DNA of 20,000 bases from an uncultured virus (IMG/VR IMGVR_UViG_3300043467_002020) (taxonomy: Duplodnaviria; Heunggongvirae; Uroviricota; Caudoviricetes): the IMG/VR virus record IMGVR_UViG_3300043467_002020. One strand, given 5' to 3'. The notes beneath the pieces are model-generated. The model was not told the origin of the DNA. It worked only from the letters and a program-made list of their open reading frames with translations, and searched no databases. The translations under genes and the position numbers were made by a program. Of this stretch, positions 2 through 20,000 are shown one piece after another (positions within the stretch are counted from its first letter, which is position 1; every line of letters starts with the position of its first letter).

Positions 2-805
2 CAATTTATTGTTGATGGGGGAAGCCTTTCTTCGGTTGACCCTTCAATCATGCCCAAGATACTCGCAAAAGCTGGAGTAGTACAAAGACAGAGATTAGCC
101 AACAACATTAGCGCTATATCCACCCCGTCAGAAAGTCTTTTTCTTTACGAAAAGCCATCCAAGTTTCAACATATTGCCGAAAGATTTGCATCAGATGTGC
201 AGCAGTCTCTTGGGCTGGAATCTCCAGACGTCGTCTTTGCATCAAAGCAGGGTGATTCACGTCAGTTTCTGCGTCAAGAGGTAACTGCGGCAATACCTGG
301 AGCCGTTTTCAATCCGGATGCGAAATTCAACGAGCTCGACCCTCAGGACGTGGCGGCAATGTTTGTGTCAGATTTCCTCACCGACCAGCGCGAACGTCCG
401 ATGACGTCTATATACACGCTAGATACCCCTGACGCTCGAAGGCTCGTACTGGGGCAAAACTCCACATCCGGATTAATAGACTTGTCTAAAATTGAAATTA
501 CGAATCGCATGAAAATGACGCTCAGCGAATTTTATAGTTCACAAGCAACTCCGGCATATTCCGATTATTACCAAGCACTAAAAGCCGAACAAAGATTGTT
601 GTTTATGAAATATCTAAACATCCTAATAAATAGAGCAAGGAAATTCAATCCTAAAAATTTCAACGACTCGATGAATCAATATGGTATTTCCGAAGGAGAA
701 AGAATACATATGAATATCATTGGGAAGCTATTCGAAGTACGCCTTGAAGGTTTGCAAAGTGGTAAAAACAGCCTAAAACTACTGTTCTCTGGAGGCAATG
801 TATGA
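2..805 (+). CDS. C-terminal part of a protein with a degenerate HipA/PI3K-like kinase domain (5' end outside window)
   Basis: The frame is open from base 2 (QFIVDGGSLSSVDPSIM...), so the ATG at 50 is probably internal. ERFASDVQQSLGLESPDV resembles the HipA-like E-x-x-A...LGL-x-x-P motif. DFLTDQRERPMTSI sits where D-x-L-x-x-N-x-DRH-x-x-N is expected. Confidence 0.45.
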   Translation, partial: QFIVDGGSLSSVDPSIMPKILAKAGVVQRQRLANNISAISTPSESLFLYEKPSKFQHIAERFASDVQQSLGLESPDVVFASKQGDSRQFLRQEVTAAIPGAVFNPDAKFNELDPQDVAAMFVSDFLTDQRERPMTSIYTLDTPDARRLVLGQNSTSGLIDLSKIEITNRMKMTLSEFYSSQATPAYSDYYQALKAEQRLLFMKYLNILINRARKFNPKNFNDSMNQYGISEGERIHMNIIGKLFEVRLEGLQSGKNSLKLLFSGGNV

Positions 806-1494
806 AAATTGGTTTCATAAAAGACGTATTTAGTGGAATGCCGCACGTTATGGCATCGATGGAAAATGAAGTTATTCACGTAAAATCGATTACTGAATTT
901 GGTAAATCAATTATTGAAGATTTTGATTTTGATGAAAAAAACATTGGTGCAAACGTGCCTGTTGGTTGCGTTTTTACTGGATTTTTTGCTGACAAAAATA
1001 ATCTCCAAGTGCCAGAAAAAGAAAACCAGGTTAAGCAAGAAAATTTTACATATGCCAGAAAATCAATAAATGACATATCGCATCGAAAAATTAATGCGAT
1101 TGGACTAGAAATGAATAAGTTCACAAACAGCACTAACAAAATTAATGCTATTGCATTCAAAGCTGAATCATTCAAGAATTCTGTGCGCAGGTCTAACTTC
1201 ATCCGAAGAATACATAGCGGGAAGATAATTTTTAACGAAAAAATGGGGCGGATTGAACTAAATCCAAAGTTTGCCTTTAGCAGTATCGAGAAAGAAGTTC
1301 TTAATTCTTCTTTCGGCAAGAGTTTCATTAGAAAATCAGCCGATAAAGAAATAATGCAAAGTAGCGATAAGCGTAGAGTCGCACGCAGGGCAAAGGTCCT
1401 TCTTGGGCTAGCAGGCGGAGAACGTTCTCCTGAAAAACAACAAATTTCAGAACGAATACAAAAAGCCCGCAGGCAGGTCAAAAATGGCAAGTAA
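802..1494 (+). CDS. Hypothetical phage protein (230 aa), basic C-terminus
   Basis: ATGA overlap with the upstream stop, GGAGG shortly upstream of the start, and overlap with the next gene. No recognisable motif. Confidence 0.7.
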   Translation: MKIGFIKDVFSGMPHVMASMENEVIHVKSITEFGKSIIEDFDFDEKNIGANVPVGCVFTGFFADKNNLQVPEKENQVKQENFTYARKSINDISHRKINAIGLEMNKFTNSTNKINAIAFKAESFKNSVRRSNFIRRIHSGKIIFNEKMGRIELNPKFAFSSIEKEVLNSSFGKSFIRKSADKEIMQSSDKRRVARRAKVLLGLAGGERSPEKQQISERIQKARRQVKNGK

Positions 1495-2146
1495 AAAAGA
1501 TTTGGTAAAAAAGGCTGACGCCCTGCGTCTAGCTAAAGATATTGGCTGTTCTGGTGCCCACAAGGACCGCAAAGGAAATTGGATACCTTGTGAATCAATA
1601 GAGGAACTAGAAAGAATATCCAATACTGCCGAAACATCAAAATGGCGAACCGTGGTTCCTGGTTCAAAATCATCAAAGGAACGTACCAAGGGGAAAAATA
1701 AACGCCGGCCTGACGGCTGGGAAAACCTAAGAGAAAAGCCAATCCGTGGCATTGAGTCACTCCCTGGCGTGGGGCTCGTTTCAGGCTCTTCATTTAATTC
1801 AAAATCACTTAACTGCTGTGGCACGAAAGGGGCCGGACCTGAATTCGTACGCGACAATGATGTCGATGTGTTCTTGGATGCAGACTCAGCGAGGGCTCGT
1901 TCCCGTCAAATCGGATGCATAGGTATTAGTAGGCGAATAAGCAAGTCTGGGCGCACGGTTTGGATGCCATGTACCAATATGAGCGATTATTCAAACAGGA
2001 CTGGTTCTACTGATTTAGGGCGCAGAAACATGCGGAATCGTCGCGAAGAAGAGACGCGACGTGCAGTAAGAACAGTTCTAAGAGAGACTTCTAAGCCAAA
2101 TGTAGCGAGAAAAAGTTCGCTAGCAAAAGAACTACGTATTAAATAA
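1484..2146 (+). CDS. Basic protein with two DUF3721-like (GCxG...W[IM]PC) domains
   Basis: Two internal repeats: ALRLAKDIGCSGAHKDRKGNWIPCES and ARARSRQIGCIGISRRISKSGRTVWMPCTN. WMPC is the recalled signature of DUF3721. Confidence 0.65.
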   Translation: MASKKDLVKKADALRLAKDIGCSGAHKDRKGNWIPCESIEELERISNTAETSKWRTVVPGSKSSKERTKGKNKRRPDGWENLREKPIRGIESLPGVGLVSGSSFNSKSLNCCGTKGAGPEFVRDNDVDVFLDADSARARSRQIGCIGISRRISKSGRTVWMPCTNMSDYSNRTGSTDLGRRNMRNRREEETRRAVRTVLRETSKPNVARKSSLAKELRIK

Positions 2147-2310: not shown

Positions 2311-3660
2311 ATGTCGCAAGACAATTCCCGTACCGAGGAGCTTCAATCAGCCCTCCGTCAGAAGATGGCAGACAACAAGACCATCGCTGACTCATTCAAG
2401 GTAGAAGACGGCACAGTAGTCGTCACTACGGAACAGAAGACCGCGTTCGACAAGAACATGCGAGACATCAAGGAAATCAAGTCGCTTCTTAGTGACCTTG
2501 ATACCATGAAGTCAGTCGACCAGTGGGGCTCACAGCCTGCAGGCGAATCAGCCGCAGCAATGTACGCTGCCGCTGCCGCAGACCTCAGTCACTTGTCTTC
2601 ACGTGAAATCAAGAGCATCGGTCAGCTATTTCTTGATTCTCCGGAATTCAAGGCACTCAATGGTGGTCGCAATGGCGCAAACATGGTTGCCCCATGGACC
2701 GTCGCTGCTTCACTGACGACCCAAGGAATGTACAACGTCAAGGATGTCTTCTCGGCAACCCCGACCGGCACCCCTGGTTCGTTTGGAACGATTCAGCGTG
2801 ACCCGATGGTGACCCCGCCGACCCGCACAAAGCGCGTTCGCGACTTGTTCCCGGCCCGTAAGACCAATGCTGCTGTTATCGAATACTTCCGTCAGTTGGG
2901 TTTCACGACCCTACAGACGGGCCATGGTACGAACAGCGCCTCATCGGTTGCTGAGCGAAATAGCGGCAACACCGCCTTTGGCCTCAAGCCACAGTCGTCG
3001 TTCGCCTTCGTTGGTGAGCAAGCCCCAATTCGCACACTCGCACACTGGGAAGCTGCACACCGCAACGTTCTGTCGGACGAGCCGCAATTGCGTTCAATCA
3101 TCGACAACGAACTCATGTACGGTCTCCGTCTCCTTGAGGATAATCAAATCCTCAATGGTGATGGCGTCGGCGAGAACTTGCTTGGTGTTTTGAATACCCC
3201 CAACATCCAGCAATACGCCTGGTCAGATGGAGAAAACTCCCCGGTCGCAGATACAAAGGCCGATGCACTTCGTCGCGCCGCAACTCTCTCGTTCCTTGCT
3301 TACTACGAGCCATCTGGCGTCGTACTGCACCCGAACGACTGGGAAGACATCGAATTGACCAAGGATGCCAATGGCCAGTACCTCATCGCAGTTTCGGTTG
3401 CAATGGGTGGCGAGCCACGCGTCTGGAGAATGCCGGTAATTGATACCCCAGCAATGACCGCTGGCAAGGCCCTTGTCGGAGCATTCGGTACAGGAGCACA
3501 GTTGTACGACCGCGAAGAGGCGAGCATTCGTATCTCTGAGCAGCACTCGGACTTCTTCATCCGTAACGCAATCGTGATTCTCGCCGAGCAGCGTTTAGCT
3601 CTCGCAGTGAAGCGTCCCGAAGCGTTCGTTGAGGTTACCTTCGACAACGAGCCAGCCTGA
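2311..3660 (+). CDS. Major capsid protein, HK97 family (449 aa)
   Basis: N-terminal coiled-coil delta-like domain. Typical HK97 motifs: RVRDLF, TLAHW, QILNGDG.GENLLG, VLHPNDWEDIELTKDANGQY, ILAEQRLALAVKRPEAFV. Strong SD and biased codon use. Confidence 0.95.
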   Translation: MSQDNSRTEELQSALRQKMADNKTIADSFKVEDGTVVVTTEQKTAFDKNMRDIKEIKSLLSDLDTMKSVDQWGSQPAGESAAAMYAAAAADLSHLSSREIKSIGQLFLDSPEFKALNGGRNGANMVAPWTVAASLTTQGMYNVKDVFSATPTGTPGSFGTIQRDPMVTPPTRTKRVRDLFPARKTNAAVIEYFRQLGFTTLQTGHGTNSASSVAERNSGNTAFGLKPQSSFAFVGEQAPIRTLAHWEAAHRNVLSDEPQLRSIIDNELMYGLRLLEDNQILNGDGVGENLLGVLNTPNIQQYAWSDGENSPVADTKADALRRAATLSFLAYYEPSGVVLHPNDWEDIELTKDANGQYLIAVSVAMGGEPRVWRMPVIDTPAMTAGKALVGAFGTGAQLYDREEASIRISEQHSDFFIRNAIVILAEQRLALAVKRPEAFVEVTFDNEPA

Positions 3661-6695: not shown

Positions 6696-6768
6696 CGCGC
6701 CGGGCAGGATTCGAACCTGCAATCGACAGATTAGAAGTCTGTTGCCTTATCCCTTGGGCCACCGACGC
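6696..6768 (-). tRNA. tRNA-Arg(UCU), 73 nt, CCA not encoded
   Basis: Acceptor stem GCGTCGG/CCGGCGC, anticodon arm ACAGA-CT TCT AA-TCTGT, T arm GCAGG-TTCGAAT-CCTGC, discriminator G followed by CAA. Confidence 0.95.
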
Positions 6769-7271
6769 TAGGGGTTTTGCTTGTTCTTTCTAGCATGATA
6801 CAGATTTCTTTGCCGTTCATTTTGCTTCTCTTTGTTTTTTAGACGGTACTCGCGCTTGCATTCTTTACAAACTCTGTATTCTTTACCAATTTGTCTGCCT
6901 TGCTTCTTTACATAGACAAGAGGTTCAAACTCTTCAAAAGAGTGACCCTTCTTGCAGCCATCTTTCTTCCTATTAGAAGTTCCTTGTCTGTTTTTGTTAA
7001 ACATGTCCCTTGAGTTGGCAGAATAGGTGTCGGCCCACAGGTGCTCTGGATTGACACATGCCGGAACATCGCAGGTATGACAGATTATTAAACCATCAGG
7101 GATTTCACCCTTATGGATGATATAAGAATAATGGTGGGCCGAGGTTGTCTTGCGGTTTACCGCGAAAGAACCATACCCGCGAGAGTTTGGCGCTCCAGTC
7201 CATAACCAACAGGAATCAGTCTTGTTTACCTTTTGGAAAAAACGTTCTTCGAGGGACATGTTTTTAGGCAT
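6768..7271 (-). CDS. Free-standing HNH endonuclease (HNH_3-like) with C-terminal zinc ribbon
   Basis: RFFQKV...CWLWTG...GYG...AHHYSY...GEIPDGLIICHTCDVPACVNPEHL...N..D, then CKKGH...RVCKEC. Confidence 0.92.
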   Translation of the reverse strand: MPKNMSLEERFFQKVNKTDSCWLWTGAPNSRGYGSFAVNRKTTSAHHYSYIIHKGEIPDGLIICHTCDVPACVNPEHLWADTYSANSRDMFNKNRQGTSNRKKDGCKKGHSFEEFEPLVYVKKQGRQIGKEYRVCKECKREYRLKNKEKQNERQRNLYHARKNKQNP

Positions 7272-7275
7272 GTGA

Positions 7276-9201
7276 CTACTTTACCGGACAAGCTCCAGTT
7301 GCGCAATCGTCCATATCAATCTCTCCGTTGAACTTCTCTTGTACTAATGGAATGGAGAAGTCGATTTTAGAGACCATCTTTTCGTATAGTTCTTTTGTTA
7401 TCTCTTCATATGGAGGGAGAACGAAGTTGTGGTCGCTGTGCAAGAGGAATGATACGGACTTCACGCTCTTGTCGTAGTTCTCAGTCAACCACTCCTGAAT
7501 GCTTTTTAGCTCTTCTTTGCGGTAATAGACCGTAACGGAAACAGCATTGTCTGCCCACTCGGTTTGAACTTTCTTTACCCACTCAAGCTGCTGCACTGCT
7601 GTCATTTCGCTTGCCAAAGTTGAGCCCTCTGGAGACATGCAGGGGAATTCCACAACATAACGCGTATGGTCTTCTCGGCCATCAATGCCGATATCCCATA
7701 CGACCTTGTAGCCACGCTTGCGACATGCGTCAACAAGTGGGTCTGCCGCTCCAAAACGAACGCGCCGGATGTAGTGAGGGGCAAAAGCCGGGTGAATGCC
7801 CGGAGTAACGCCTGGAAGCAGCGAGAGAGTGCCTGAAGGCTGAACCGTGGTCATTCTCACAGACTCAGGGAACCCCTTTTCCGCGGAATACTCCTTATCA
7901 AGGTCGCGTAAGTACTTGTACGCCGTATCGAGCCACGAAACCTGCTGTTCAGTTGCCTGAAGAACTCCAGTAATGCTTTGACCAAGGCGTGCATTGGCCC
8001 TGACAATAGATGTCGTCTTCTCGTACGGGTACGGGAGTCTGGTGATTTGCTTCTGCGTCATGTAAAGGAGACGCGAAAGTGACAAGAATTGCGGCAAAGA
8101 TTCGATATTAGGAAGAAAAATTGTCGCGAGATTGCACGATTCTCCATCTGCAAGTGCAATTTCCGCACATGGATTAAAGCCCTCGATTGTTGCGTCTGGG
8201 CGTTTTTCGCCAAGGCGACCGTGAGTTCGTGCGAGCTTCCTATTAACTAGACCGTATGGCTCTCCCGAGCCGTCATATCCACGCCATAGTTCTGCTGGTA
8301 TTTCTTCCCAGCCGTCGGCATATAGCGAATTGTTACTATTTGCTCGCCACCCAGGAATGTTTCCTGAACCCCAGTTCTTTGCTCGGAGGAAGAGAACATC
8401 GTCAGGGTCGCCCATTGCGATTTGCGCCGAACGCCTTGATGAACCGGAAACAACAATTCGACCAATGATATTGCAGATATCCAAAACATCGATTGACCTA
8501 AGCTTCTTGCCGACACGGTTATCTAAAACCTTGCAAATATCGCTAATACCATCAATGAGGGCTCCAGGTCCGGAAGCAGTACCGCCAAACGTCTTGAGAG
8601 GTGCACCAAACTCACGAATCAAAATGGTCGAATAGGTAAAGGACTTGCCGGTATCAAAGTACGACTTAAGAACGCTATGCAAAAGGCGACGCCAGCCAGT
8701 ACGACTGTCTGGAACAATAATGTCAGCGTCGTTACTACGCTCCTGTGTAATAGTTACTCCACTCTTGATTCTGGGCAAGTCGTGAATCTTTGAACGCTCT
8801 ACGGAAAAACCCACGCCACCGCCAAGCATCAGGTAGTCAAACAGCATTTCAAAATCTTCAACTTTTTCGATATTCGTGAAGTAGCAGTTGTTTAAAGACG
8901 CTCCGCCAAAACGTGCAACCATTCCAGTTCCTAGTTGCCACAAAGCACGCCCACTCATTGAGCAGCGCAGGTTATACATGTGGTCAAAAAGCTCTTCCGC
9001 TTCTTCGCGGGTGTAGGGAACGCCAATTTCTATTGCACCATTGACAACACGCTGAATCGTTTCGGGCCATGTTTCGATGTTGCCGTTGTCTTTTGTGCGG
9101 CTATAGGTACGGAGAAAAACAATTTCTCCCATGCCATTGAAGCCCCATGGAACGGGACGATTGGCGTAAGAAGCAACGAATTTGTCATCAATGTGGTTCA
9201 T
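7276..9201 (-). CDS. nrdJ: Class II (adenosylcobalamin-dependent) ribonucleotide reductase, monomeric RTPR type
   Basis: FLRTYSR, SGRALW, LNNC, GGGVGF, RRSA, finger loop NPCAEI, TTVQPSGT and C-terminal CATGACP. No small-subunit gene adjacent. Confidence 0.93.
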   Translation of the reverse strand: MNHIDDKFVASYANRPVPWGFNGMGEIVFLRTYSRTKDNGNIETWPETIQRVVNGAIEIGVPYTREEAEELFDHMYNLRCSMSGRALWQLGTGMVARFGGASLNNCYFTNIEKVEDFEMLFDYLMLGGGVGFSVERSKIHDLPRIKSGVTITQERSNDADIIVPDSRTGWRRLLHSVLKSYFDTGKSFTYSTILIREFGAPLKTFGGTASGPGALIDGISDICKVLDNRVGKKLRSIDVLDICNIIGRIVVSGSSRRSAQIAMGDPDDVLFLRAKNWGSGNIPGWRANSNNSLYADGWEEIPAELWRGYDGSGEPYGLVNRKLARTHGRLGEKRPDATIEGFNPCAEIALADGESCNLATIFLPNIESLPQFLSLSRLLYMTQKQITRLPYPYEKTTSIVRANARLGQSITGVLQATEQQVSWLDTAYKYLRDLDKEYSAEKGFPESVRMTTVQPSGTLSLLPGVTPGIHPAFAPHYIRRVRFGAADPLVDACRKRGYKVVWDIGIDGREDHTRYVVEFPCMSPEGSTLASEMTAVQQLEWVKKVQTEWADNAVSVTVYYRKEELKSIQEWLTENYDKSVKSVSFLLHSDHNFVLPPYEEITKELYEKMVSKIDFSIPLVQEKFNGEIDMDDCATGACPVK

Positions 9202-14344: not shown

Positions 14345-17300
14345 ATGTCTGTAGATAACAATGAGTTCCACATCCCCTTTGAGGAAACGCGTCGCGGTGT
14401 AGATTCAAACACCGAAGAAAAGGCCGCCCTCGGTCGGCTGGGGCGCTATTTGGGCTCCAGAGCCACAAACAGACCCACTATCGGCCAGAGGCGAAGAGGC
14501 AGGGGCGGTGGTCGAGGGGTCGAAATACCTACCGGCGGCAAGCCAGGCACACGAAACCCAACGGGCTCGCGAAGGGACGTCGATGGAGACGGCTGGGCTG
14601 ACGAAGGAACCAAGAAGCCGGTATGGGTGGGGATGGGGAATACGGAGCCCGCATCAAAACCAAAGCCTCAAGCGCAAAGACAAACAGCGAAAAGAACCGA
14701 GACAGAAGTTGCCAAGAAGCTATCCAGTGGATTGGAGCAACTGTCGCCGTTAGAGCGTTACGACTATGGTCCAGTGGTTGCTGCCAAAAAAATCAAAAGC
14801 AAAGACACCGAATACAGGCTAGTCATTAGGAATGACTTTGATATTGGCATCTATCTTGAATCAGATTTCAACAAAGCACGCGACGTTTTAGTCGAGAGAT
14901 TCAACAAACTTGGAGCGAACCCCTTCAACGATAAGCCATCTCCATTGGGTCCGGAGGATATCGACGACAGGGATGTTCTGAGGTTCATGCTCGACAACGA
15001 TAAGACCATAAAAACCATGTCGGCCATGCAAGTATGGTCGCCCGGTGGCGGCAGTCGAACTGAAGTTTTTCAAATCAACACAAGACCCAAACACCAAAGA
15101 CGTGGTCTCGCAGCAGAGATGTTCAATACACATAGGGAAACTTTCCCTGAGTTGGACCTTCAGCACAGTGATGCGTTGAGCGAGGATGGTCGAGCATTTT
15201 CAAAAGCAGTACCGGCTACGTCCAACATGGAATCCCCAGATAGGCCGTCCAGTCTTTCGTCTGGAAAAAAATATCAAGAGCTTGTCGATGCTCAGCCAGA
15301 ATTAACCGAAGAAAAGTTGCGTCAGATAGACGAGCTTAATGAATTATTAAAAAGCGATTTACTTGATAGCGCCGACTCGTATAGTGAAGATACTGATGTA
15401 TTTGGCACAGGAATAGATATTTTAAATGATTCACCAGAGCGTGCAGCACAAAGAAAAAGAGTGCATGATTTATTACGTGAAATTTTTAGTGGAGAAATTG
15501 AGTTAGAGGAAGACATCATCGTCACCGCTACTAATGGCGAAAAAATAAATTTAGGAAAAACTGTTGTTGTTGATGTTGCTGAATCTTTCGAAGCCCTTGG
15601 CTGGCAGGTGGAGATAGACGAAGTAAGTGAAGAAGATATACAACTAGTCCAAGACCAAACTTTTGAACCATTTCTTTCAGCCGATTCAACCGGCATTGGC
15701 CTAGCCGCAAGATTTCAATTCAAACTAACCCCCACTGCCGATGCCGCAGAACGACTAACTGCAGCCGGGGTGCCAGATGAAATGATTTGGGATGAGATGA
15801 TGTCGGTTGGGCCCGGCACCCAAGGAGAAGTGCAATTTGGTCGCTCCGCAAGAATGCTTTCGTATTTTCCTGGAGATAAACCAACGGCGACGATGCAGCA
15901 TGAGACTTTCTTTCTGAATTCGGAGTCTCAAGGACACGGCATAGGAAGCGCATTCAATGCAAGAAATGAAAAAATATACGAAGCTATCGGTCAATTAAAA
16001 ATATTTGCAGCGGGGACGTCCAATACCGAAGAATCCATTGGGGCGACGCACTGGCCTAGAAATGGATTCACGTGGGCCGGGGAACCAGGGAAACAAACTT
16101 TTCTTGGGACAATCGCAGAAGCCCTCGATGATACTGAACAGAACTGGTTTAGTCCGGAAGAGAAATCCCGGATATCGTCATTAATACGGAAAAATCCTGA
16201 TACGGGCTTATTTGAAACTGACTCAACCCCAGAAAATCTTCTCAAATTCCAACGAGCAACGGAATTATTCAAAGAAAAAGAATTGTCGATTCTTTACGTG
16301 CGTGAAGTATCCAAGAGAAAGACTCCAGCCGGCGCACTTTCCAGTGGGCGCATCGGAACCGTAAAAACAGAACCAGTCGAGATGATGCGTTCAACGGAGT
16401 TTCCGAAACTAGGTACTAAATTAATTGATTCTGGCGGTACGCCCGACCCCACCTCTAGTCAAAAACAATATATGGAATTCCCGGTTTACGAAATTGACGG
16501 GAAAAAATTTGCGTTTGGCAATACTGACTTGGGCCGATTCCAGCCTGAGTTCAATACCGAAGATATAGAGATAGTCCCTCTAAATCCTTACGCAATTGTC
16601 GGACTGCCCAAAACCTCCACCGAAGGACAAGAGTGGGCGTTGAAAATGTTTCATGCGATTCAAGCAGTTTCTCTTCTTGACGACATTGAGGCTGGGCGTG
16701 TTGGCAATAGAAAAGTTGGCCTAGTCGCAGCTTTAACTTATGCTGCGAAGCGGGGAGATAAGCCTGCCCTAGAAGAACTGGAACGTTTGGCAAAAATTGG
16801 TGAGGAGCTTTTAGTAAACAACCGACGAGATTTCGTATCGGCTGCGAAGGTGTACAACGAACAGATGTGGGACGTTGACGGCACCTATTGGGACGACACG
16901 CCAAATATGCAAGTCGTTCTTGGCCCGACAAGAACCAATGAATACGGCGACACCGTCCGCACAACAAGAGCACTAGGCATCGATGACATGTTTCTTGTTC
17001 ACCAAACATCATATAAGCCTCAGTATGATGACGACGGCAATATTATTCTTAAACCAACCGGGGATTTTATCCCAATTGACCCCAATACTGGCGAGCAATT
17101 ATTGGACCCCATATCAGGCAAGCCAGTCGCCATGCCAGACCGCGATTCCATACATATGACCCTTAATCACATGGTCAAGGGTCATATGTGGAGAAATGAG
17201 CCCACGGAATCAACAAGCGTTATCATCGTTCCACTAAGAGACGTACTTGACGCTAACCCCGGCTCCTTGGACAACCTTTTCGTAGTTGACACATTCCTCA

Positions 17301-20000
17301 CACCAAAGCCAGGTGAAGGACTTGTCATACCAATGAAAAAAGGAAAGGTCGTGGAAGGCTCTGGCAAGGAATTGAAGGAATCCGTTCATGAGGCCTTGCT
17401 TGAAGTAGGCAAACTGCACAATGGGCATCCCGAATATATTACGCCGACGCTTTTAGGCGGAGAAAGTTTTTCAGAAACGCCGAATGCCGACGACCGGGTG
17501 GGGGTGGTCGCACTGCAGGATATACCGAAAGAATACCCCGAATATGCCGAAGGTGTCGTGGGGTCGCCTCACGCAGACCACCCAAGTGTCAGGTTGGCAG
17601 AATTTGATAATTTTTATGTAAATAGCGCCTCTTCTCGCATGGCCGCCTATGACTACGGCCGATTGAGTCCTAATGCAAAATTAAGAATTTACGATAGCAA
17701 TTCGGATAAGTACTCCTCAGCCAGAATTGAAACAATTTATGAAGACAGTGGGTTTTCTTCTGGAAGAGTACAACGACGTACGCCAAAATCTGGAGCAAAC
17801 CTCGCGGATGCGTTTGATGAACCAAGAGAAGTAACTCAAGAAGAGGCCACTCGAATGGGCTCATCGCGAGAGGTGTTGACCAGCAAAAGAGTTGCTGAAA
17901 GAATAATAAAAAAAATAGAAGAAAAAACCGGCACAGAGCTAACAACAAATCAAAAGAACACTATTGAAAATACTATTCCTGGTTTATTGGACGAAATTGC
18001 TGAAAAAACACTCTTAGATGTTGAGGTCAGCGACGCATTTTCCGAAACTGGGGAGCAGTTACTGTCCTCGATAGCGATTGATATTGCTTCTGACGGAATC
18101 CCGTTCGTGTCTGCTGACCCAATACCTCAACTGGCAGAACAAATTCCAGACAAACGAGACTGGAGTACTGTCGAGCTACCAAAACGAGATGATGTTCTTT
18201 CGATACTTGATGAAGCACTTAAAGACACTCTTATATTTAAAAACAATGTTTGGCTCGACACTGATGGCAATATTGTTGCAAGAAAAATAGATAAAGATGG
18301 CAGCTCTTCCTTGGAATTTGAGAGCGAAGAAGCCAGAACTAGATTCCCATTGTTGGAAATGATAGCTCCATTAGGATTCGTAATAGCGGGTGACAAGCTC
18401 AGTCTTCCACGCTTACAGCAAGACACATTGCCCAAGCCATATATCGAGGCATGGAAAAAACATTCAGAATTTATGGTGGAGCTTTCGCGTCGGGCTGGCA
18501 AATTGATGGGGGATGAGGGACTCTTTGTTCAAGGCTCTAGAAGAATTCACAACTCTTCTACCTATATTCGTGGTTACATCGGCGGGATAACTGACCCATC
18601 TAAATTTAATATGGGGCTCACTGGTAAGGCTCTTCAGGATTCTCATGACCTATTCGGGCACTTGGGAACAGGAAGAGGCTTTGACCGTCACGGGGAGTGG
18701 GCCAATGACCTAGCCATGATGTCAATCATTGACCACCCCGATTCTCCTTTGACGCCAAAAGAAAAATTAGCTGTAAAACACCTTCACTATTTACTTTACT
18801 CTGCCAATCGAATCAAAGAGGGTAGAAATGATGAGGCAAAAGATACTACAGGAATCGTTCAGCGCATTAATCGAGCAAGAACCATACTTGACGTCGCATA
18901 TCAAGACGTAGGCGATACACGCACATCAACACCACGCGTATATGCAGGTGATTTTGGTTCCGTTATCAAGAAACTTGATGCAGCATCAACCACTAAGGGG
19001 CTTTCATCTGGCCGTAAGTCAATCTATGAAGCCGACCCTGAAGATGTTGAGCTTGCTCTTGCGTATGACGCCTTAGGAATGAGCAATAGACTTGCATCCG
19101 GACGAGAGCGTCCTCGCATACTTGCAAGACCCATTCTGAGACGCCCAACTATTGAACCAGGAAGACGTGCAGTAAAGGGGTACGGCAAGCCAGATGCTTC
19201 CGGGAATGAAGTACGCAGAAACTCAAATAAGTGGCTTGCTGGAATGACCCCAGAAGAAATCTCTCGCGTTATTATTCCGAGCTCACAAGCGGAACATTTT
19301 GAAATGTGGGCAGACGATATGGCTGGTGGTTCATGGAGAACAAACAGCAAAGAGCGCGAGTTCCTGCAGAAGTACTACGACGAGTTGAGGGCTAATAAAA
19401 ACAGTCTAGATATTGATTACTCACCAGAGAACGTAAAAGCTACACAAGAGTTAGTGGAGGGAATGCTCAAATCTTCTCCACAGATGTTGTGGATGTTTGA
19501 AAACTTTGGTTCGCCGATGATTGTTTCCTTCACGCGTGAAGCAATGGAGGGTTTTGAAGTATCTCCCGAAATGAAAGAACGCTTAGAACTCAGTCGTCAG
19601 CAACGCGGAGCGGAAAAGTCGCAATTTATTAGCGGTTTATCTTCTCCTGCATTTGGATTAATAGGGCTAGCACCACGCGCCCTCATTGACAGAGAGTCGA
19701 TGACAACGAATGAAAAAGGCGTTTACCCGATTAATCTTGACCCTGCCAGAATTCCTCAACCACGAGATGCTCACGTTGATAGGTCGCTCCACGGCGTTGT
19801 AATGCACGAATATGGCCATTGGCTTCACTACAGGGCCGCATGGGACTCAGAGGCGAATGGTAAATCTCGTAAAGAAAAATCTTTCTACGGCTCCGGAGAT
19901 ATTAGTGACCCACGCTATGTCGCTGCATTAGAAGTAGCCGACGAGTACATGAACCCCGATGCGGACGACGAGGCTATTAAAATCTGGTCTGAGTTCATAG
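14345..20000 (+). CDS. Giant polyvalent protein (>=1885 aa, runs off window): GNAT, GNAT, putative ART-fold, HDxxGH and HExxH modules
   Basis: Hand translation from ATG 14345 (in-frame TAA directly before it) found no stop up to 20000. Motifs: QRRGLA (15095), QGHGIG (15929), LVHQT/RDSIHMT (about 16994-17161), HDLFGH (18644) and HEYGH (19805). Confidence 0.9.
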   Translation, partial: MSVDNNEFHIPFEETRRGVDSNTEEKAALGRLGRYLGSRATNRPTIGQRRRGRGGGRGVEIPTGGKPGTRNPTGSRRDVDGDGWADEGTKKPVWVGMGNTEPASKPKPQAQRQTAKRTETEVAKKLSSGLEQLSPLERYDYGPVVAAKKIKSKDTEYRLVIRNDFDIGIYLESDFNKARDVLVERFNKLGANPFNDKPSPLGPEDIDDRDVLRFMLDNDKTIKTMSAMQVWSPGGGSRTEVFQINTRPKHQRRGLAAEMFNTHRETFPELDLQHSDALSEDGRAFSKAVPATSNMESPDRPSSLSSGKKYQELVDAQPELTEEKLRQIDELNELLKSDLLDSADSYSEDTDVFGTGIDILNDSPERAAQRKRVHDLLREIFSGEIELEEDIIVTATNGEKINLGKTVVVDVAESFEALGWQVEIDEVSEEDIQLVQDQTFEPFLSADSTGIGLAARFQFKLTPTADAAERLTAAGVPDEMIWDEMMSVGPGTQGEVQFGRSARMLSYFPGDKPTATMQHETFFLNSESQGHGIGSAFNARNEKIYEAIGQLKIFAAGTSNTEESIGATHWPRNGFTWAGEPGKQTFLGTIAEALDDTEQNWFSPEEKSRISSLIRKNPDTGLFETDSTPENLLKFQRATELFKEKELSILYVREVSKRKTPAGALSSGRIGTVKTEPVEMMRSTEFPKLGTKLIDSGGTPDPTSSQKQYMEFPVYEIDGKKFAFGNTDLGRFQPEFNTEDIEIVPLNPYAIVGLPKTSTEGQEWALKMFHAIQAVSLLDDIEAGRVGNRKVGLVAALTYAAKRGDKPALEELERLAKIGEELLVNNRRDFVSAAKVYNEQMWDVDGTYWDDTPNMQVVLGPTRTNEYGDTVRTTRALGIDDMFLVHQTSYKPQYDDDGNIILKPTGDFIPIDPNTGEQLLDPISGKPVAMPDRDSIHMTLNHMVKGHMWRNEPTESTSVIIVPLRDVLDANPGSLDNLFVVDTFLTPKPGEGLVIPMKKGKVVEGSGKELKESVHEALLEVGKLHNGHPEYITPTLLGGESFSETPNADDRVGVVALQDIPKEYPEYAEGVVGSPHADHPSVRLAEFDNFYVNSASSRMAAYDYGRLSPNAKLRIYDSNSDKYSSARIETIYEDSGFSSGRVQRRTPKSGANLADAFDEPREVTQEEATRMGSSREVLTSKRVAERIIKKIEEKTGTELTTNQKNTIENTIPGLLDEIAEKTLLDVEVSDAFSETGEQLLSSIAIDIASDGIPFVSADPIPQLAEQIPDKRDWSTVELPKRDDVLSILDEALKDTLIFKNNVWLDTDGNIVARKIDKDGSSSLEFESEEARTRFPLLEMIAPLGFVIAGDKLSLPRLQQDTLPKPYIEAWKKHSEFMVELSRRAGKLMGDEGLFVQGSRRIHNSSTYIRGYIGGITDPSKFNMGLTGKALQDSHDLFGHLGTGRGFDRHGEWANDLAMMSIIDHPDSPLTPKEKLAVKHLHYLLYSANRIKEGRNDEAKDTTGIVQRINRARTILDVAYQDVGDTRTSTPRVYAGDFGSVIKKLDAASTTKGLSSGRKSIYEADPEDVELALAYDALGMSNRLASGRERPRILARPILRRPTIEPGRRAVKGYGKPDASGNEVRRNSNKWLAGMTPEEISRVIIPSSQAEHFEMWADDMAGGSWRTNSKEREFLQKYYDELRANKNSLDIDYSPENVKATQELVEGMLKSSPQMLWMFENFGSPMIVSFTREAMEGFEVSPEMKERLELSRQQRGAEKSQFISGLSSPAFGLIGLAPRALIDRESMTTNEKGVYPINLDPARIPQPRDAHVDRSLHGVVMHEYGHWLHYRAAWDSEANGKSRKEKSFYGSGDISDPRYVAALEVADEYMNPDADDEAIKIWSEFI

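Follow-up and report, generated by a model that had tools for sequence, protein, structure and literature searches.

Why should a single enormous phage protein carry the same four residues again and again along its length? The question is raised by a 20,000-nucleotide stretch of DNA (hereafter the window, meaning the whole stretch analysed) from an uncultured virus of the Caudoviricetes, IMG/VR record IMGVR_UViG_3300043467_002020, in which an open reading frame beginning at position 14345 encodes a giant protein punctuated by the motif [LF][SA]SG, most often Leu-Ser-Ser-Gly (LSSG). An earlier note on this DNA had proposed that the motif separates enzyme modules, and that it is either a protease site or a packaging/ejection signal that releases host-takeover enzymes from a virion-loaded precursor. 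Our conclusion is that LSSG genuinely marks junctions in phage polyvalent polyproteins, with a distribution far from random, and that it exists in lineage-specific dialects. We also consider it reasonably probable that the mark is a lineage-specific protease cleavage code of polyvalent polyproteins carried in the virion. Linker position, conservation and shuffling thus bear out the junction part of the earlier proposal, while cleavage and release from the virion are what we infer.

The giant open reading frame is cut by the window end, and the whole frame was taken from a 31.9-kb virus record (G000:C1). There are 13 base differences between the window and this record over the 5655 bases of the giant gene (14345-19999), and they alter a single residue (S1854G). 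The parts of the giant that lie in the window are these:

14345..20000, plus strand: giant polyvalent protein, first 1885 codons of 3305 residues; the open reading frame continues 4.26 kb past the window end.
14345..14719, plus strand: N-terminal leader, residues 1-125, Arg/Gly-rich, with DVDGDGWADEG at nucleotides 14576-14608; the first LSSG is the leader end.
14720..14731, plus strand: junction motif 1, LSSG, residues 126-129.
14732..15253, plus strand: module 1, residues 130-303, possibly GNAT (QRRGLAAEMF at nucleotide 15095); present by BLAST in seven LSSG giants.
15254..15265, plus strand: junction motif 2, LSSG, residues 304-307.
15266..16336, plus strand: module 2, residues 308-664, without a family match; 22 homologues by BLAST, elsewhere in the chain.
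16337..16348, plus strand: junction motif 3, LSSG, residues 665-668.
16349..17752, plus strand: module 3, residues 669-1136, without a family match.
17753..17764, plus strand: junction motif 4, the variant FSSG, residues 1137-1140; by eye, LSSG or LASG stands before the same module in homologues.
17765..19000, plus strand: module 4, residues 1141-1552, weak match to phrog_3170; 23 homologues by BLAST, in three lineages.
19001..19012, plus strand: junction motif 5, LSSG, residues 1553-1556.
19013..19090, plus strand: 26-residue spacer peptide between two motifs, residues 1557-1582; the giants P0007, P0009 and P0011 have this peptide too, again with a motif on each side.
19091..19102, plus strand: junction motif 6, the variant LASG, residues 1583-1586.
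19103..20000, plus strand: start of module 6 (module residues 1587-2009), zincin-like HExxH, with HEYGH at nucleotides 19805-19819.

The six copies begin where the earlier note had placed them (nucleotides 14720, 15254, 16337, 17753, 19001 and 19091; residues 126, 304, 665, 1137, 1553 and 1583), and its segment lengths of 174, 357, 468, 412, 26 and >299 residues are correct on recomputation. Against these six copies of [LF][SA]SG, 0.19 are expected in the window part of the protein (Poisson P ~6e-8). The full 3305-residue protein has ten LSSG, one FSSG and one LASG; the expectation for LSSG is 0.112 (Poisson P ~8e-17), and none of 20,000 shuffles exceeded four. LSSG is by far the commonest four-residue word in the giant, Leu or Phe precedes 11 of 12 SSG, and two copies, at residues 2753 and 2760, form a doublet three residues apart. 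Conservation, as the earlier note had claimed, is at the level of the peptide and not of a DNA repeat: Leu is encoded by CTA, CTT, CTG, CTC and TTA, Ser by TCN and AGT, and Gly by all four of its codons.

The motif is also kept in homologues. Restricting the search to proteins of similar length gave 60 giants of 1817-4703 residues, one being the query's own cluster. The other 59 comprise 34 punctuated by LSSG, 13 by GM[RS]S and nine by STRS (by top tetrapeptide), and three others. In the 35 LSSG giants, query included, LSSG is found 297 times, compared with 3.9 expected. The first position tolerates Phe in place of Leu and the second Ala or Thr in place of Ser, and the second Ser and the Gly are fixed; FSSG is enriched 5-fold and LASG 3.5-fold. 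The segments between sites have a median length of 291 residues (quartiles 125 and 387). Motif flanks have a hydrophobic fraction of 0.21 versus 0.29, are depleted in Cys and are enriched in R, K, S, P and Q.

Module shuffling points to the same places. BLAST blocks shared by the query and its homologues end at motifs, and the order of the blocks differs among giants. Pairwise comparison of the LSSG giants, limited to pairs of 80% identity or less, yielded 6374 internal alignment ends; 30% of the ends lie within 5 residues of a motif compared with 3% of random points, and 60% lie within 20 residues compared with 12%. The 12 motifs and the alignment ends together delimit eleven modules in the giant, whose context is that of a phage, with capsid, portal, terminase and sheath genes. 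In being one polypeptide of many domains encoded by a phage, the giant is like the polyvalent proteins. The 26-residue peptide RKSIYEADPEDVELALAYDALGMSNR (residues 1557-1582) recurs between two motifs in distant homologues; it may serve as a spacer, or it may be a small product with a function of its own.

Structure models covered five of the 12 motifs. Aligning whole giants with the 421-residue query left most rows mis-aligned (15-22% identity), and matching stretches were aligned instead. The resulting AlphaFold model of residues 2360-2780, from 13 aligned sequences, has a mean pLDDT of 76.7; its exonuclease domain exceeds 90, and the stretches below 50 span model residues 1-22, 61-66, 85-104 and 394-421. 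The model contains four motifs (model residues 15-18, 102-105, 394-397 and 401-404), each of which falls in one of these low-scoring stretches. The fifth motif, at residue 3167, directly precedes the C-terminal domain, the model of which begins four residues later and has a mean pLDDT of 82. Thus all five modelled motifs are predicted to lie outside folded domains.

Homology to the leader, which is about 100-120 residues long in the giants, was found in 43 of them and is N-terminal in 39; in 40 of the 43 the first motif lies no more than 40 residues from the leader end. The leader sequence DVDGDGWADEG (residues 78-88, nucleotides 14576-14608) resembles an Asp-Gly loop of the calcium-binding kind, and the homologue leaders that were compared keep it.

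At the joints where LSSG stands here, sister lineages have one of GM[RS]S, STRS, [IV]SGRM, [ILV]TG[AS]M and G[FL][AS]S. Five records were compared: G001 (119.7 kb), which has the same giant gene at 100% identity, G002 (90 kb, GMRS), G006 (86 kb, STRS), G007 (106 kb, [IV]SGRM) and G008 (169 kb, [ILV]TG[AS]M, rated complete). Counts of each record's own motif in frames of >=1000 residues, and then in frames of 80-999 residues, are as follows:

G001, LSSG: 19 and 2.
G002, GM[RS]S: 30 and 0.
G006, STRS: 37 and 1.
G007, SGRM: 13 and 1.
G008, TG[AS]M: 14 and 3.

Foreign dialect motifs occur 0-3 times per record. In G001, LSSG is nearly restricted to three giants and the tape measure, distributed as follows:

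Giant after the portal gene: 4 LSSG and 1 LASG.
Second giant: 3 LSSG and 1 LASG.
Giant under study: 10 LSSG and 1 LASG.
Probable tape measure: 2 LSSG and 1 LASG.
Two small frames: 1 LSSG each.

The switch of dialect can be followed around individual modules. The module at residues 2764-3166 is 81-83% identical in two other lineages, and its flanks are LSSG here and GMRS or STRS there; aligned sequences of the exonuclease module show the same swap of flanking motif at both ends. Such replacement of LSSG, joint for joint, by a different tetrapeptide in each lineage is what a recognition site that co-evolves would be expected to show. Further dialects are seen in related giants (L099/G007, L091/G008, L104; P0209-P0237), namely [IV]SGRM, [ILV]TG[AS]M, TGSM, G[FL][AS]S, GLRS and LGSR.

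The dialect extends to the tail. The tape measure of G001, a phage that has tail-sheath, tube and baseplate genes, is encoded as follows:

G001, 34958-39817 (L014:14958-19817), minus strand: tape measure, with the phage's own motif near residues 36-55 and once more further in, as in the tape measures of G006 and G008.

At residues 36-55 the tape measure has LSSG in G001, STRS in G006 and TGAM in G008; in G007 a near-variant, LNARMG, occurs there twice, and in G002 there is no motif at that place. The distribution suggests, from sequence, that one enzyme processes the tail ruler as well as the giants.

The giants other than the one under study lie in a head block. In G001 terminase and portal are followed by a 2887-residue giant, an acidic 580-residue protein and a 2849-residue giant, and the capsid gene comes after three smaller genes. 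The 2887-residue giant opens with 170-200 residues of S78 prohead protease (Pfam E 1.2e-11; phrog_80 E 4.5e-26), followed in the same chain by ArdC-N, MPTase-PolyVal and a UvrD-type helicase; a leader-like stretch comes after the protease part. In G002, G003 and G006 the S78 protease is a separate gene of 472-494 residues, and the order is portal, protease, all giants, capsid gene. Peptidase_S78 was identified in G001, G002 and G006-G009. Two modules of the giant under study (residues 2764-3166 and the Cys-His end) occur in head-block giants of G002 and G006. The protein between the first two giants of G001 (65502-67244; L016:5502-7244) is 580 residues long and rich in Glu, Asp, Met and Lys; it is conserved in all five lineages (45-63% identity) and may be a scaffold.

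The earlier note had assigned one enzyme-like motif set to each large segment, which no family search supported: Pfam, PHROGs and PDB sequence searches gave only a sub-threshold GNAT match, the HExxH and RNase_T, and matched almost nothing in the window part of the giant. The match of segment 1 to Acetyltransf_1 (GNAT) in Pfam has E 0.15, below the cut-off, and the last window segment has HExxH as a bare motif without a family match. The RNase_T exonuclease, beyond the window, is the only match in the giant above the cut-off (Pfam E 7e-15). The note had also mentioned ART domains, of which the Pfam search found none in the giant. Homologues and the G001 paralogue contain ArdcN, MPTase-PolyVal, GNAT, ADPrib_exo_Tox, NUDIX and Zeta_toxin domains.

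Under a cleavage code, the system would work as follows. The giants would be chains of gene-sized modules that evolve and move independently, joined by disordered, hydrophilic linkers each bearing [L>F]-[S>A,T]-S-G, and the tetrapeptide would be the recognition site of a phage-encoded protease. Precursors would be made late, and a leader of about 110 residues, ending at the first site, would target them to the prohead or virion. They would be cut at every site into separate enzymes, which would enter the next host along with the DNA. The released set would include an exonuclease, a zincin and GNAT-like and Cys-His domains, joined in the paralogues by ArdC and a helicase. The site would evolve in dialects jointly with its protease. 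In this scheme it is cleavage, the scissile bond, packaging, ejection, the identity of the acting protease and any 'host takeover' that we infer. A wider version, which we rate at about an even chance, is that an abundant clade of ~150-170-kb phages carries virion-borne chains of swappable effector modules cut at a four- or five-residue code, and that each lineage rewrites the whole code, along with a co-evolving protease, wherever it occurs: in the giants, in the tape measure and in some cases in the protease. Dialects might insulate lineages, for example from cross-processing or host decoys.

Which enzyme would do the cutting? Three candidates are encoded by the phages themselves. We tentatively put the S78 prohead protease first, at somewhat below an even chance; a zincin (HExxH) module in the giants is rather less likely, some other or host enzyme less likely again, and the C-terminal Cys-His module the least likely.

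By analogy, S78 is the enzyme that known biology suggests, and its gene heads the block. Aligned by eye, the dialects LSS-G, G-LSS, G-FAS, G-M[RS]S and S-TRS have a common core, hydrophobic residue-x-Ser. Such a core resembles the sites of assemblin-fold proteases, which are of the form (V/L/I)-x-Ala/Ser. The S78 proteins of G007 and G008 each have one copy of their own motif, and those of G002 and G006 have none. The natural head substrate for comparison is the capsid protein, encoded in the window:

2311..3660, plus strand: HK97-type major capsid protein, with a conserved L-S-S-R (nucleotides 2593-2604, residues 95-98) at the expected end of the delta domain.

Among 120 listed homologues, 98 have L-S-S at the presumed delta-domain border and most others L-T-S, with LSSG in none. 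The L-S-S-R lies in these homologues within a conserved QL[ST]SREIKSIG, beside a variable Ala-rich stretch, and is a candidate maturation cleavage site.

For the zincin, each of the five records has at least one HExxH near residues 480-600 of a giant of the second-giant type. A Protein Atlas search with the zincin region of the second giant gave sub-threshold leads only: a 'putative metalloprotease' cluster at 0.89, and one cluster in which 14% of the members carry LPD1. Module 6 of the giant under study, which bears the HExxH, is present in 32 of 34 LSSG giants and in none of 25 others (13 GMRS, 9 STRS and 3 other). A search of 1.84 billion representatives with this module gave 66 matches, and among the 28 strongest (E<=1e-29) almost every one is a giant punctuated by LSSG; among the weaker full-length giants, most use G[FL][AS]S, GLRS or LGSR. 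Module 6 tracks LSSG but also tracks lineage, and is therefore not singled out as the protease; the distribution fits co-divergence, and also fits simple descent.

The Cys-His module (residues 3171-3305 of the giant under study) is always the C-terminal end of its giant, directly after a motif. Its Cys35, His57, His74 and Asp89 (own numbering) are invariant, it is 38% and 28% identical between lineages, and it has a lineage-specific insertion. The model gave middling fold matches (Z 5.0-6.4) of the papain/transglutaminase-like kind, namely NTAQ1 (Z 6.4), SseI (6.0), LapG (5.4) and protein glutaminase (5.3), with no C80 chain among the fold matches listed. Foldseek returned no match at E<=0.001, a profile against PDB sequences returned one chance-level match (E 0.41), and the module as a single-protein query against viral contigs found only identical copies.

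A number of observations weigh against a cleavage code, or against a particular enzyme for it. No cleavage product has been seen, and the cut is predicted from sequence. The lineages are related by descent, and the association of motif with lineage amounts to few independent events. The gene under study is outside the head block; it lies 10.7 kb downstream of the capsid gene, behind primase/helicase and helix-turn-helix (HTH) genes. No match to the first 1885 residues of the giant was found in 50,697 phage records, and there is no cultured relative. The capsid protein has L-S-S-R without exact LSSG, and in the GMRS, STRS, SGRM and TGAM lineages no capsid protein shows the motif of its lineage at the presumed delta-domain border. 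The S78 catalytic domain is 72-84% identical across the five dialects, about as conserved as terminase, which argues against S78 as the determinant of dialect unless the shared core hydrophobic-x-Ser is what it reads. To our knowledge, a tape measure would also be an unusual substrate for a prohead protease. For the zincin, HExxH is absent from three examined of nine STRS-lineage giants, and present in other giants of an STRS phage; the Cys-His module was not found in two of the five records, G007 and G008.

There are three other possible explanations for the motif. The first is that the tetrapeptide is read or handled without being cut, either as a packaging/ejection mark or as a joint that allows unfolding and threading through portal and tail, so that the giants remain intact multi-enzyme chains. 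The tape measure, which itself passes through the tail, carries the motif, and the motif lies in disordered linkers, both of which suit such a role; moreover, passages of PMC5512222 describe some polyvalent proteins as delivered uncut, for example the N4 virion RNA polymerase and ArdC. However, a mere flexible joint needs neither an invariant Ser-Gly nor a lineage-wide switch of all copies. The doublet at residues 2753/2760 and the 26-residue spacer between two sites look like processing sites, a leader whose end coincides with the first site is reminiscent of a targeting peptide that can be removed, and no candidate reader protein is known. We regard an uncut signal as unlikely.

The second explanation, that a host protease cuts the motif either in the producing cell or after ejection, with dialects reflecting different hosts, seems to us quite improbable. 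It has the merit of accounting for substrates that include both head-block giants and a tail tape measure, a range that suits an enzyme of the cytoplasm or envelope better than one restricted to the prohead, and for a conserved S78 that does not track the dialects. Yet capsid, terminase and protease are 68-84% identical across the five lineages, making their hosts probably close kin, and among such relatives housekeeping proteases would not diverge at each position of a four-residue site; each phage, furthermore, encodes several proteases of its own.

The third, that the repeat is a by-product of gene construction such as a recombination joint at module insertion with no function in the protein, draws on the exchange of modules between giants and lineages exactly at motifs, and we dismiss it as very improbable: codons vary freely (TCN versus AGT for Ser) with no conserved DNA joint, a module 81-83% identical is nevertheless flanked by the local dialect, which implies selection on the peptide, and the positions in the tape measure follow the dialect.

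With a protease cleavage code thus retained as the preferred reading, how far has it been anticipated? Literature searches for an LSSG-type junction code in phage proteins found no description. The nearest precedent is the class of polyvalent proteins described by Iyer, Burroughs, Anand, de Souza and Aravind in 2017 (PMC5512222) as 2-15 unrelated domains in one polypeptide in phages and conjugative elements. As set out in passages of that paper, effector domains include ArdC-N, MPTase zincin, helicase, nuclease, GNAT, ART, NUDIX and pentapeptide repeats, and processing by the proteins' own zincin peptidases and delivery with the DNA are predicted; those passages name no cleavage site, and the word 'linker' occurs 0 times in the paper. 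One point of likeness is that the G001 paralogue has the Pfam pair ArdcN and MPTase-PolyVal. What differs here is a defined tetrapeptide at every joint, common to the giants of a genome and its tape measure and switching as a set. For packaging in the virion the evidence here is gene order: the paralogues, and those G002 and G006 giants in which modules of the giant under study recur, lie between the portal/protease and capsid genes.

A second comparison is with prohead proteases. The internal proteins and Alt of T4 have a capsid-targeting sequence and are processed by gp21. In phages of the phiKZ/SPN3US type, the SPN3US prohead protease gp245 cuts head proteins after AXE, with several cuts per propeptide, according to the parts of PMC10052503 that treat it. 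Such systems have a short consensus in many head proteins, removal of an N-terminal propeptide, a self-cutting protease, several cuts per chain and ejected cargo, all of which the present system would resemble under a cleavage code; an S78 prohead protease gene does stand at the front of the block here, in one case as part of a giant. They mostly trim the propeptides of single proteins, whereas here 10-14 sites would split 3000-residue chains into gene-sized modules; and, unlike in those systems, the site here is not present as such in the capsid protein, is present in the tape measure, and the protease does not track the dialects.

Outside phages, the closest designs are toxins and viral polyproteins. 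In MARTX and the large clostridial toxins, the effectors of a giant precursor are freed by a built-in cysteine protease that cuts inter-domain linkers after delivery; these toxins target eukaryotic cells, and their C80 protease is activated by inositol hexakisphosphate. The Cys-His module here, by contrast, gives only papain/transglutaminase-like fold matches and is absent from two lineages. In RNA-virus polyproteins and at adenovirus sites, a viral protease cuts a repeated short consensus and evolves together with its sites. A further case is that of the pp220/pp62 polyproteins of ASFV, dealt with in part of PMC10308890. Unlike the products of viral polyproteins, the modules here are accessory enzymes, and not a core replication or capsid set. 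We know of no general use of the polyprotein strategy by tailed phages.

The remainder of the window includes the following:

2..805, plus strand: C-terminal part of a 673-residue head-block protein, kept in all five lineages.
1484..2146, plus strand: 220-residue DUF3721 protein, stand-alone, just upstream of the capsid gene.

By eye, the DUF3721 protein matches the first ~200 residues of the 3273-residue capsid-adjacent giant of G002 (GMRS lineage); the DUF3721 module is, on this match, a separate gene in one lineage and fused to a giant in another. The other window genes encode a staphylococcal-type nuclease, a WhiB regulator, a primase/helicase and an HTH protein, followed by the giant open reading frame from 14345. 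An HNH endonuclease gene (6768-7271, minus strand) abuts a class II ribonucleotide reductase gene (7276-9201, minus strand), and may encode a homing endonuclease.

The closest cultured capsid proteins, at 48% identity, are those of Brevibacterium and Gordonia phages, and this kinship together with the WhiB gene indicates an actinobacterial host, so that the host is probably a member of the Actinobacteria. The capsid has 2659 homologues at E<=1e-30. The phage genome would be roughly 170 kb, with three giant polyvalent proteins; in each of the three records for which they were added up, three to five such chains take up 11-26% of the estimated genome.

If the cleavage code is true, the giant 'hypothetical proteins' of such phages could be parsed into working units from sequence alone, giving clean borders for the expression and assay of dozens of unknown anti-host modules, and the 2017 prediction that polyvalent proteins are processed would become experimentally approachable. 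It would also mean that tailed phages use polyprotein expression with a co-evolving protease and sites, a strategy that has until now been recorded chiefly in RNA viruses, in bacterial toxins and in a small number of large DNA viruses of eukaryotes. These giants would then be the DNA-phage counterpart of RNA-virus polyproteins and of MARTX toxins.

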